Source: a virus. Taken from it: a DNA stretch of 39,910 nt. The stretch lies in the UHGV virus genome UHGV-1354558; one strand, 5' to 3'. How positions within the stretch are numbered: position 1 is the stretch's first letter; every line of letters begins with the position of its first letter. The position numbers and the translations under genes are program-made. This document shows positions 22,337-23,682 of this stretch, one piece after another. A model generated the notes under the pieces. That model had not been told where the DNA came from. It made no database searches and saw only the letters and a list, made by a program, of their open reading frames with translations.

Positions 22337-22352
22337 TTGTGCCGTATTTGTG
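22337..22352 (+). repeat. 16-bp direct repeat copy 1 (TTGTGCCGTATTTGTG), candidate integrase arm-type site
   Basis: Exact 16-mer also present at 22555..22570; the two copies flank the attP core. Confidence 0.4.
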
Positions 22353-22461
22353 ACATACACATGACAACATCATGCATCAACTTTCTGTTTGTGCCATCAA
22401 CTATAGCTTAGTGAATGCGGTTAATGCTTGCTAAAACAGATAGTTATGATTGGTGCTACAG

Positions 22462-22507
22462 ATTCGTAATGCGAAGGTCGGAGGTTCGACTCCTCTTATC
22501 GGCACCA
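22462..22507 (+). other. attP core: 3' portion of a tRNA-Thr gene (anticodon loop to CCA end)
   Basis: ATTCGTAATGCGAAGGTCGGAGGTTCGACTCCTCTTATCGGCACCA matches the 3' half of enterobacterial tRNA-Thr (the P22 thrW integration target). The 5' half is absent, so this is an att site and not a functional tRNA. Confidence 0.75.
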
Positions 22508-22521
22508 TTTAAATCAATAAG

Positions 22522-23682
22522 TTACCTAACATTTAAGTAAACCACGTTCTCCTCTTGTGCCGTATTTGTGCCATTGCGACTTATAATCGCATCGATTTTG
22601 CTCGCGTGCTCGGTGAGATGCCCGGCTGAAAGGTGGGCGTATCTTTGAACCATTTCGAGAGTTTCCCATCCTCCCATCTCTTTAAGTGCAAGAAGAGAGA
22701 CACCTGACTGAACCAGCCAGCTTGCCCAGGTATGCCTCAGGTCATGGAAGCGGAAGTTGCTAATGCCTGCCCGCTTTAACGCTCCCTTCCATGCCTTGTT
22801 GCTGTCGGTTCTCATCTTCCTTACCGCTGCTGTTTTTGTTCCGTCGCTTCGGTAGGCAGGTTTGGTGTGGACAAATACCCATCTCTTATGGAGCCCCTGC
22901 TGTTTTCTTAATATCTGGCATGCGGTTTCGTTAAGAGGAACTCCGATCGCATTGCCAGCTTTTGTTTCATCAGGGTGCATCCATGCCATTTTCTTATCCA
23001 GATCGACCTGTGACCACTCAAGGTCTGTAACGTTGGAACGGCGAAGGCCTGTCGTGATTGCAAACATGACCACAGGGAAGAAGTGAGGAGCAATTTCTGC
23101 AAACAGGCGCTTCGATTCCTCCTCTGTAAGCCATCTGATGCGTCCATTCTTAACGCGTGGTGTTGATATTTTGGGTGCTCTGTCAAGCCATCCCCATTCA
23201 ACAGCCATATTGAGAATGGCGCGAAGTATTGCCAGATGCCTCGTCTTCGTTCCTTTGCTTGCCAGCTTTGGTTTATACTCCGGCACCGGATTGCCAAGTC
23301 GTAAACACCTGTCCCGGCTCATCTCCCAGTTCAGGCGATGGCGGCGGTTTTCCATCCCGTCTACCGCCTCCATTATTTTTTCTGTTGTTATGTCAGAGAG
23401 AATGGCTTCTCTGAAGTGCAACATCCAGAACGATATAATGCTCTTGTCATCATCAATGGACTTCTTATCCGATTTCTCACGCAGCCACCGTATGCAGGCT
23501 TCCTTGAATAGCTTTTTCGGTGATTCCCCGAGATTTTTTACTCTCCACGCTTCTGCTTTCAGACGATCGTGAAGTTCTTGCGCTTGCCTTTTGTCCGATG
23601 TTTCAAGAGAGCGTCTAATTCTTGATCCATCTGGCGCGACGAAATCGCAGTGCCACGTGCCACCGCGTAGTTTGATTGACAT
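22522..23682 (-). CDS. int: tyrosine integrase
   Basis: 386 aa with C-terminal catalytic motifs (HDLRHTWASWLVQSGVSL...LGGWETLEMVQRYAHL). AGGAGG upstream; adjacent to the tRNA-derived att core. Confidence 0.9.
   Translation of the reverse strand: MSIKLRGGTWHCDFVAPDGSRIRRSLETSDKRQAQELHDRLKAEAWRVKNLGESPKKLFKEACIRWLREKSDKKSIDDDKSIISFWMLHFREAILSDITTEKIMEAVDGMENRRHRLNWEMSRDRCLRLGNPVPEYKPKLASKGTKTRHLAILRAILNMAVEWGWLDRAPKISTPRVKNGRIRWLTEEESKRLFAEIAPHFFPVVMFAITTGLRRSNVTDLEWSQVDLDKKMAWMHPDETKAGNAIGVPLNETACQILRKQQGLHKRWVFVHTKPAYRSDGTKTAAVRKMRTDSNKAWKGALKRAGISNFRFHDLRHTWASWLVQSGVSLLALKEMGGWETLEMVQRYAHLSAGHLTEHASKIDAIISRNGTNTAQEENVVYLNVR
22555..22570 (+). repeat. 16-bp direct repeat copy 2 (TTGTGCCGTATTTGTG), candidate integrase arm-type site
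   Basis: Identical to the copy at 22337..22352; lies within the 3' end of int. Confidence 0.4.

Follow-up and report, generated by a model that had tools for sequence, protein, structure and literature searches.

In UHGV virus genome UHGV-1354558, a 46-nt segment resembling the 3′ half of a tRNA-Thr gene sits between two identical 16-bp direct repeats, which raises the questions of whether this locus is a phage attachment site (attP), which protein would recognise the repeats, and what two substitutions in the T stem of the tRNA-like segment might say about the host. Within the whole stretch of DNA analysed here (39,910 bp, hereafter "the window"), sequence comparisons indicate that the region is very probably the attP of an SfX/HK446-type thrW integration module, used by a lambda-type (heterobivalent) tyrosine integrase. 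The features on which this reading is built are the following.

22337–22575, plus strand: proposed whole attP (P arm, core, P′ arm), with the outermost arm-type sites as its limits; about 97% identical to the SfX, HK446 and mEp attP regions.
22337–22346, plus strand: putative arm-type integrase (Int) site P1, TTGTGCCGTA, the first half of the left 16-mer, from the motif scan; −129 from the anticodon G at 22466.
22348–22357, plus strand: putative arm-type Int site P2, TTGTGACATA, the second half of the left repeat, from the motif scan; −118 from the anticodon.
22389–22398, plus strand: putative arm-type Int site P3, TTGTGCCATC, standing alone, from the motif scan; −77 from the anticodon.
22412–22434, plus strand: conserved P-arm block TGAATGCGGTTAATGCTTGCTAA, with 21 of 23 positions identical in a divergent attR P arm (L029).
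22462–22507, plus strand: 46-bp core equal to thrW nucleotides 31–76, running from the anticodon loop to CCA; positions 22481 and 22495 hold the G50-C64 variant.
22463–22469, plus strand: putative 7-bp overlap (strand-exchange) region, the anticodon loop TTCGTAA, placed from the start of tRNA identity, allele linkage and the SfII annotation.
22512–22524, plus strand: candidate H′ site, IHF consensus match AATCAATAAGTTA, with the int stop codon occupying its final 3 nt.
22555–22564, plus strand: putative arm-type Int site P′1, TTGTGCCGTA, the first half of the right 16-mer, from the motif scan; +89 from the anticodon.
22566–22575, plus strand: putative arm-type Int site P′2, TTGTGCCATT, from the motif scan; +100 from the anticodon.
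22522–23682, minus strand: int, tyrosine integrase of 386 aa (PF00589), overlapping the P′ arm sites with its final 18 codons.
23559–23906, minus strand: xis, excisionase of 115 aa with an HTH_17 domain, overlapping the start of int.

The att region displays 96.5–97.4% nucleotide identity to those of HK446, HK542, mEpX2, mEp213 and SfX, several of which are annotated as attP similar to thrW/ptwF. An earlier note had proposed an attP here, and this 96–97% identity, the adjacent tyrosine integrase and excisionase genes, and attL and attR junctions in E. coli all bear it out. The features of a lambda-type attP found at the locus are a tyrosine recombinase gene, a core common with attB, splitting of the site in lysogens, repeated sites in two arms, and an adjacent xis. 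The site lies between the gtrABC O-antigen conversion operon and int-xis, with gtrA adjoining the left arm and int the right arm, and the SfX att site likewise adjoins gtr genes. Across the modules of Shigella phage SfX and of E. coli phages HK446, HK542, HK75, mEpX2, mEp213, mEp043 and ECP1, the five TTGTGMC sites, their spacing and the IHF-like site are the same as in the window. The window departs from this group at the two T-stem positions of the core, where SfX/HK446-group attPs are canonical (T..A) and the window has G..C; all 17 of the P-arm copies in IMG/VR that are followed by the core and then a P′-type flank are T..A. Among INPHARED phages, the G..C 46-mer was found only in Hafnia phage yong1, whose arms are P22-type. 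The rest of the window genome also differs from the SfX/HK446 group, being another mosaic, with Dewey, APC_JM3.2 and IME10 as its nearest phages. In GenBank notes, the thrW site of SfX/HK446-group modules carries the label "type CP4-6".

This kind of attP is already known: it is the ordinary, catalogued thrW attachment site of an E. coli P22-like phage, and the scientific stakes are small, thrW being a classic integration hot spot and attPs of this type being annotated in several phage genomes. A map of an SfX/HK446-type attP, with its five putative arm sites, IHF-like site and proposed overlap region, is absent from the GenBank records, and would be useful for annotation and for the design of integration vectors.

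The core itself corresponds to nucleotides 31–76 of E. coli thrW, which encodes tRNA-Thr(CGU), as read from four chromosomal loci (L007–L010). ARAGORN detected no complete tRNA gene in the window and Rfam gave no match in 22200–22700, so the tRNA-like segment is a fragment; a functional tRNA gene was ruled out on both grounds, and also because the sequence upstream of the core is the P arm and not the thrW 5′ half. Compared to the published 46-bp core of SfI, SfII, SfV, SfX and P22, ATTCGTAATGCGAAGGTCGTAGGTTCGACTCCTATTATCGGCACCA (PMC3636060), the window has two substitutions, T>G at 22481 and A>C at 22495. They fall on linear tRNA positions 50 and 64, partners in the T stem, where U50-A64 becomes G50-C64. 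The double change is truly compensatory, and the two T-stem differences from E. coli thrW that the earlier note had pointed out are real. A search of host genomes for the core, which that note had suggested, returned exact matches in 450 of 5,426 complete E. coli genomes (8%), mostly inside annotated tRNA-Thr genes; otherwise, the chromosomal attB (thrW 31–76) shows two differences from the window core. Consistent with the proposal that integration would regenerate the tRNA 3′ end, the thrW 5′ half joined to the window's 46 nt is exactly the tRNA-Thr(cgt) gene of PKF11 and B19429 (ARAGORN, PGAP).

The repeats are as originally described: TTGTGCCGTATTTGTG has exactly two copies in the 39,910-bp window, at 22337–22352 and 22555–22570, both on the plus strand, separated from the tRNA-like segment at 22462–22507 by a left gap of 109 nt and a right gap of 47 nt (about 110 and 48 bp had been claimed). 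A repeat search extended them to 20 nt with 19/20 identity (TTGTGCCGTATTTGTG[A/C]CAT) and a copy spacing of 218, and each 16-mer belongs to a longer unit of 20 nt in which two sites of about 10 bp stand in tandem, 11 bp apart. The derived 9-mer TTGTGMCRT has five matches in 79.8 kb (both strands of the whole window), all on the plus strand within 22337–22574, with three sites in the left arm, two in the right arm and none elsewhere; this motif was drawn up post hoc from the same data, and conservation in other elements is the stronger control. The two repeats are not a product of chance.

Within E. coli SfX-type P arms, which are 96–99% identical throughout, a conservation footprint is uninformative, and the comparison was based on three divergent loci (L016, L023 and L029). 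In L029, P1 and P2 are each conserved at 8 of 10 positions and P3 at 10 of 10, with the offset of P3 unchanged, while in L016 (Trabulsiella) and L023 the P′1–P′2 pair is conserved at 19–20 of 21 positions with unchanged offsets (P′1 at +89), against 15 of 47 for the spacer. The P′ sites lie inside the int coding sequence, and part of their conservation could reflect the protein level. The same pair of sites is present in both arms of attPs carrying other tRNA 3′ fragments (L076, L083, L092, L141 and L097), which shows that integrases directed at other tRNAs use the same arm motif and geometry. Since divergent relatives with unrelated spacers retain the site pair at the same spacing, an arm-type role is well supported in silico, and each of the two 16-mers most likely represents a pair of arm-binding sites for the integrase. 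The earlier suggestion of arm-type 16-mers is hence upheld by the P22-like geometry and by conservation relative to the spacer, but needs amending, as each 16-mer represents two sites of about 10 bp and a fifth site, at 22389–22398, had been missed. The conserved block at 22412–22434, judging from its retention in L029, is a candidate binding site for Xis or a host factor; it has no IHF consensus match even with one mismatch, and the P arm as a whole had none at zero or one mismatch. A sigma-70 promoter scan of 22100–22700 yielded no match.

The window Int matches PF00589 over residues 184–353 (E = 9.5e-35, 120 bits), and its identity is 99% with HK446 Int and 54% with P22 Int. It is collinear with the latter, including the RHxxxW...Y region, and a weak, below-threshold DUF6538 match at its N-terminus is likewise seen in P22 Int. 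The ORF homologous to xis is annotated as excisionase in both HK446 and SfX. Exact matches to WATCAANNNNTTR number only three in the window, one of them being the candidate H′ site at 22512–22524. Salmonella phage P22 (and SfII, SfV and SfI) shares with the window the thrW target, a 46-bp core that is the same but for 2 nt, and, for P22, the gene order gtr-attP-int-xis. For P22, the comparison uses the GGGAC motifs that recur in its sequence, which we equate with the arm sites reportedly mapped by Smith-Mungo et al. 1994. Measured from the anticodon, these motifs stand at −130, −119, −65, +89 and +100, and the window sites at −129, −118, −77, +89 and +100. The layout is thus the same, the P arm having a tandem pair plus one further site and the P′ arm a tandem pair within the int 3′ end, although the third P-arm site of P22 is 12 bp nearer the core than P3. 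P22 also has an IHF-like site, AATCAAATACTTA, just past the tRNA end, in the same place as the window's. However, the P22 arm motif is TGGGACA-like whereas that of the window is TTGTGCC-like, and the arms otherwise do not align. Assignment to a P22-type thrW attP was therefore rejected, the target and geometry being the same but Int being only 54% identical, the GGGAC motifs missing and the arms unalignable. In the review table of PMC4111918, IHF is listed as not strictly needed for P22 recombination.

The heterobivalent design of lambda attP (POP′), including IHF and the Xis directionality factor, is in part established knowledge and in part taken from Table 1 of the same review (PMC4111918). 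The window shares with it a core between two sets of arm sites, a longer P arm, and a P′ arm next to int. By contrast, lambda uses an intergenic target with a 15-bp common core where the window uses a tRNA gene, the number and orientation of arm sites and the IHF/Xis/Fis layout differ, and there is no sequence similarity.

In the proposed mechanism, the catalytic and core-binding domains of Int would bind the anticodon stem-loop part of the 46-bp thrW copy, while its N-terminal domain would bind the five arm-type sites (consensus TTGTG(C/A)C(G/A)T), P1–P2 forming the left repeat, P3 standing alone and P′1–P′2 forming the right repeat. IHF would probably bend the P′ arm at 22512–22524, and strand exchange with thrW would occur in or beside the anticodon loop. 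The resulting attL would join the thrW 5′ half to the phage 3′ half, P′ arm and int, giving a working tRNA-Thr(CGU) now with a G50-C64 T stem, and attR would consist of the P arm and the displaced host 3′ half, with Xis expected to drive the reverse reaction.

Two other readings of the repeats deserve consideration. Rather than serving as Int arm-type sites, they could be bound by the excisionase (Xis/RDF) or by a different accessory protein, since tandem direct repeats spaced by about one helical turn are typical of RDF sites, a spacing that the 11-bp phasing fits, and since xis adjoins attP. We nevertheless regard this as highly improbable: the P and P′ arms both contain the motif pair, and there is a lone fifth copy, whereas the RDF sites of lambda-type systems are not known outside the P arm; moreover, the 3+2 layout matches that of the P22 GGGAC motifs, and elements with different tRNA targets retain the pair in each arm. 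Alternatively, the right repeat might be conserved only as code for the C-terminal tail of Int (NGTNTAQ), its left copy being a chance or vestigial duplication, and neither would then have a role at the DNA level. Although 22555–22575 does lie inside the int ORF and a tail motif NGTN(T/M)AQ is kept in L016 and L023, this is barely credible when non-coding P-arm copies hold fixed offsets in L029 and in tRNA-Met-type attPs, and when all five motif copies in the window fall in attP. In addition, P22 and the window both have their P′ sites in the int 3′ end, and the tail residues of the two integrases differ exactly where these sites lie; as the P22 tail differs exactly at its own arm motifs, the DNA motif appears to dictate the Int tail and not the reverse.

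In E. coli chromosomes, prophage junctions, whose inspection the earlier note had recommended, lie at thrW, where the site is divided at the core into attL and attR. In E. coli SB0258h1, a complete prophage is bounded by thrW on one side and a P-arm/core junction on the other; its attL, as in L007, consists of thrW, the P′ arm and int or an int remnant, and attR in two other loci (L004 and L159) consists of the P arm, the 46-bp core and host DNA. Several observations suggest that the anticodon loop TTCGTAA is the 7-bp overlap region. Identity to thrW begins at 22462 or at most 3 nt from it in every independent thrW-attP lineage examined, and the SfII record gives an attP of 21 bp centred on the anticodon loop. 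An anticodon-loop sublocation class of tRNA-targeting integrases has been described (10.1101/2020.11.02.365908); in the window, identity starts at nucleotide 31, and allele linkage would put the crossover 5′ of the T stem. Core positions 20 and 34 always move together with the B′ flank, and hybrid G..A or T..C cores were absent from 88 IMG/VR junctions. SB0258h1 is heteroallelic, with T..A at attL and G..C at attR beside a remnant found elsewhere immediately after thrW[G..C], and the same linkage of allele and flank is seen in SfII-type elements with an L010-type flank (L162 and L164) and in L163 with a Kluyvera-type flank, the parental alleles in this argument being assumed from linkage. A crossover in the T loop, which predicts G..A or T..C hybrids in heteroallelic lysogens, was rejected as none were seen, and one 3′ of position 34 was judged unlikely, as G..C stays with three B′ flanks that follow thrW[G..C] in non-lysogens and as tRNA identity runs from the anticodon loop onward in every attP lineage. 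From these junction comparisons, we infer that the G50-C64 variant lies 3′ of the crossover.

If G50-C64 were instead a specificity determinant within the overlap region, integration would be efficient only into hosts with the same thrW allele. The P22virB-3 GenBank record might be read in this way, as it labels a different 23 bp (ATGCGAAGGTCGTAGGTTCGACT) "attP core", a segment that would include 22481, and thrW carries the exact variant 46-mer in the 450 E. coli genomes and in other genera. We give very little credence to this possibility: heteroallelic lysogens exist (SB0258h1, and likewise L162 and L164), the two variant positions travel with the B′ flank with neither G..A nor T..C among the 88 junctions, and both the start of thrW identity and the SfII attP point to the anticodon loop.

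The T-stem variant lacks the diagnostic value that the earlier note had seen in it as a hint to the host species or allele. The G..C allele occurs in 8% of complete E. coli genomes and also in thrW of many other genera, and it lies outside the proposed strand-exchange region, so it neither identifies the host nor restricts integration; its use as a marker of host species was rejected. In the three E. coli loci examined with an expressed thrW of the G-C allele (L010, L157 and L158), the gene adjoins a P′-arm scar of an element, pointing to mobile elements as the source of the allele in many of the E. coli genomes (8%) that carry it. The thrW T-stem alleles appear to be shuffled in E. coli by integrating elements, a caveat for any use of thrW variation as a host marker. 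A more far-reaching idea, improbable in our view, is that the phage acts as a tRNA allele-replacement vehicle, lysogeny overwriting the U50-A64 pair of host thrW with G50-C64; if a G-C stem altered the stability, modification or nuclease susceptibility of tRNA-Thr(CGU), the attP core would be selected cargo and not a neutral passenger. The G50-C64 allele appears to be native to Kluyvera, Citrobacter braakii, Kosakonia and other genera.

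Within its 39,910 bp, the window carries just two exact copies of the 16-mer TTGTGCCGTATTTGTG (22337-22352 and 22555-22570), each on the + strand, and a repeat search lengthens the unit to 20 nt (TTGTGCCGTATTTGTG[A/C]CAT, 19/20 identity, spacing 218). Between the copies, separated from them by 109 and 47 nt, lies a 46-nt copy (22462-22507) of the 3' part of E. coli thrW (tRNA-Thr(CGU), nucleotides 31-76), spanning the final anticodon-stem pair to the CCA end. Compared with the 46-bp att core of SfI, SfII, SfV, SfX and P22, ATTCGTAATGCGAAGGTCGTAGGTTCGACTCCTATTATCGGCACCA (PMC3636060), this core has two differences, T>G at 22481 and A>C at 22495; in linear tRNA numbering they fall on the T-stem partners 50 and 64, so that G-C replaces U-A. 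The identical flanking 16-mers, the match to the 3' half of tRNA-Thr and the compensatory T-stem differences described in an earlier note are all present. No complete tRNA gene was detected in the whole window using ARAGORN, and no Rfam family matched around attP (22200-22700). The genes on either side are as follows.

Genes flanking the attP region
19372-20892, - strand: ORF of a 506-aa multi-pass membrane protein without Pfam match
20892-21812, - strand: gtrB (PF00535), left of attP
21809-22171, - strand: gtrA (PF04138), left of attP
22522-23682, - strand: int, 386-aa tyrosine integrase (PF00589), right of attP
23559-23906, - strand: xis, 115-aa HTH_17 excisionase, right of attP

This gene order matches the gtrABC-attP-int-xis order reported for all glucosylating serotype-converting phages (PMC3636060). 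The O-antigen glucosylation cassette (19372-22171, - strand) lies directly left of attP, and its 506-aa ORF is, judged by position, presumably the serotype-specific GtrC-type transferase. Outside this region, the window has the mosaic make-up of a P22-like podophage and is most similar to Dewey, APC_JM3.2 and IME10, all E. coli phages.

The region 22100-22800 displayed 96.5-97.4% identity to the att-int regions of SfX, HK446, HK542, HK75, mEpX2, mEp213, mEp043 and ECP1, and several of these GenBank records carry explicit attP notes (“similar to thrW tRNA and ptwF” or “type CP4-6”). The 63-bp attP annotated in HK446 corresponds to window 22462-22524 and differs only at the two T-stem positions. 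By sequence identity, the window attP and Int thus belong to the SfX/HK446 lineage: Int is 99% identical to that of HK446 and just 54-55% identical to those of P22 and SfII, which implies that at least two Int lineages use the thrW target. The P22 attP shares its target, gene order and arm geometry with the window attP, but the latter is not P22-type given the 54% Int identity and a different arm motif. Overall, this site falls in the lambda-type heterobivalent attP family, and would work in the same way, and within it in an already annotated type, the SfX/HK446 thrW attP; what is added beyond database notes is a proposed five-site arm map and a minor-allele core, neither of which would surprise a specialist. 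An intact attP with canonical core (98.3% identical), along with int and xis, was also found on a 47,948-bp circular “plasmid unnamed4” of E. coli 2023CK-01482 (NZ_CP141750.1, locus L006); this record probably represents a phage genome, excised or circular, that was deposited as a plasmid after assembly.

Each 16-mer contains two TTGTG(C/A)C copies 11 bp apart, and a fifth copy lies at 22389-22398. Across both strands of the whole window, TTGTGMCRT has five matches, all within attP and all on the + strand, starting at -129, -118 and -77 (putative P1, P2 and P3) and at +89 and +100 (putative P'1 and P'2) relative to the anticodon G at 22466. With the same convention, repeated GGGAC motifs in the P22 attP start at -130, -119, -65, +89 and +100. 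The two P' sites fall within the int 3' end in both phages, where they encode different tail residues (NGTNTAQ in the window Int vs VPNMSHS in P22 Int) in proteins that are collinear elsewhere. For P22, Smith-Mungo et al. (1994) reportedly mapped five arm-type sites, of which the P arm has three and the P' arm two.

Because the TTGTGMCRT motif was defined post hoc, independent support was taken from divergent relatives. In two thrW-linked loci, from Trabulsiella guamensis (L016) and an Enterobacteriaceae MAG (L023), 19-20/21 positions of the site pair match the window and the sites start exactly at +89 and +100, between a 47-nt post-tRNA spacer with just 15/47 identity and int sequence with 11/25. 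The matching attR P arm (L029) retains P3 at -77 (10/10), along with P1 and P2 (8/10 each). High-GC IMG/VR viral contigs in which thrW is replaced by a tRNA-Met(CAT)-like 3' fragment (L076, L083, L092, L141), or by a fragment of another tRNA (L097), carry the same TTGTGCCGTATTTGTGCC tandem pair in each arm at a distance of 196-197 bp, and int overlaps the right-hand pair. The same arm pair beside different tRNA cores suggests that arm recognition is conserved across integrases with different targets. These repeats could in principle be Xis-only sites, or reflect purely coding conservation; however, neither explanation fits a pair whose phase is fixed in both arms, the left non-coding and the right coding, across different cores. 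Instead, the pairs look like arm-type Int sites, and their retention at fixed offsets in the divergent loci lends sequence support to the earlier proposal that the 16-mers are such sites.

The P' side also includes AATCAATAAGTTA (22512-22524), which matches the IHF consensus exactly, as do two other places in the window, and P22 carries AATCAAATACTTA at the equivalent place. A consensus scan of the P arm with 0 or 1 mismatch gave no IHF-like site, and a block at 22412-22434 is conserved at 21/23 positions in L029.

The inspection of lysogen junctions proposed in the earlier note finds the region split at the core, beside thrW, in complete E. coli chromosomes. These include attL-type junctions (proBA, thrW, P' arm, then int or an int remnant; L007, SB0258h1) and attR-type junctions (P arm, 46-bp core, then chromosomal DNA; L004, L159), and SB0258h1 carries a complete ~39-kb P22-like prophage with this Int type between both. 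Joining the thrW 5' half to the window 46 nt yields exactly the tRNA-Thr(cgt) gene called by ARAGORN and PGAP in strains PKF11 and B19429, and integration would therefore regenerate a working tRNA, which supports the suggested restoration of the tRNA 3' end.

In E. coli strain 1283 (L005; NZ_CP023371.1, 3001-3174), an SfX-type P arm and just the first 12 nt of the core (ATTCGTAATGCG) are followed by unrelated DNA adjoining a DUF262 gene, which may be a truncated or secondary-site junction ending just 3' of the anticodon loop. Hybrid junctions (SfII/P22-type P arm, core and SfX-type P' arm, or the reverse) are common in both directions, based on nine IMG/VR junctions and L162-L164, suggesting that thrW is often tandem-occupied by elements of both Int lineages. 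In E. coli B19429, 7/2 and SB0258h1 (L157-L159), a thrW-linked island lies behind a 204-bp P22-type integrase remnant; with its ash-family protein and 3.2-kb “RNA-directed DNA polymerase” genes, it looks like a defence island, and the thrW (G..C)-plus-remnant junction ahead of it occurs in ~256 complete E. coli genomes.

The T-stem variant had been taken as a hint to the host species or allele, which its distribution does not support. The exact G..C 46-mer was detected in 450 of 5426 complete E. coli genomes, once per genome and mostly within an annotated tRNA-Thr, as well as in thrW of Kluyvera, Trabulsiella, Citrobacter braakii, Kosakonia, Pantoea, Erwinia, Buttiauxella, Superficieibacter, Enterobacter, Escherichia sp. 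E1V33 and Advenella. The one deposited phage with this 46-mer (INPHARED) is Hafnia phage yong1, whose arms are P22-type. The canonical allele dominates SfX-type IMG/VR junctions (33 T..A vs 1 G..C for attL), and all 17 IMG/VR SfX-type P-arm copies followed by a P'-type flank are T..A.

In three junction sets, the T-stem allele stays linked to the flank downstream of the core (B'). SB0258h1 has T..A in attL and G..C in attR, the latter followed by the P22-type int-remnant island found directly 3' of thrW (G..C) in B19429, strain 7/2 and ~256 genomes in total. LCP30S3_I5 and SC418 have G..C after an SfII-type P arm and, next to it, the SfX-type P' scar and LysR fragment that in PKF11 come directly after thrW (G..C). 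In E. coli isolate AF16 (L163, NZ_OZ547176.1), the P arm at the right end of a thrW-integrated SfII-type element is joined to G..C and a flank identical to the native sequence after thrW (G..C) in Kluyvera cryocrescens (L022), pointing to a carry-over of flanking DNA from one genus to another. Among 88 IMG/VR junctions, none had a G..A or T..C hybrid core, thrW identity starts no more than 3 nt from 22462 in all independent thrW-attP lineages examined, and the SfII record (L002, 1768-1788) places attP in 21 bp centred on the anticodon loop. Taken together, this argues for strand exchange on the 5' side of the T stem, with the anticodon loop (22463-22469) as its most likely position, which would place the window crossover in the anticodon-loop sublocation class (10.1101/2020.11.02.365908). 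The P22virB-3 record (L011, 2695-2717) is discordant, its “attP core” being another stretch, of 23 bp, that extends over the variable loop, T stem and T loop. With an anticodon-loop crossover, the phage would introduce G50-C64 into the thrW that the host expresses, and the former host T stem would stay in attR after integration. On this reading, the G..C variant is a passenger that neither limits host range nor names the host; one may speculate that it was acquired via homologous recombination with a resident P' scar like that of PKF11.

Two further features were observed left of the core. A hairpin with a 14-bp stem (CACAAAGCTTTGCA / TGCAAGGCTTTGTG, 93% complementary, 22266-22299) lies between gtrA and the P arm; it is kept in HK446 and SfX, with related sequence in P22 and SfII, and the SfII and phage L records annotate a terminator in its interval. 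It could terminate or retro-regulate int transcripts crossing attP, or be part of the gtr promoter region. At the gtrA start codon (22166-22189), two short imperfect repeats of the P'-proximal 22512-22540 occur 334-361 bp leftward (AATCAATGAGTT vs AATCAATAAGTT; TAACATTTATGTAA vs TAACATTTAAGTAA), which could be due to chance or be what is left of a former att junction bordering the gtr cassette.
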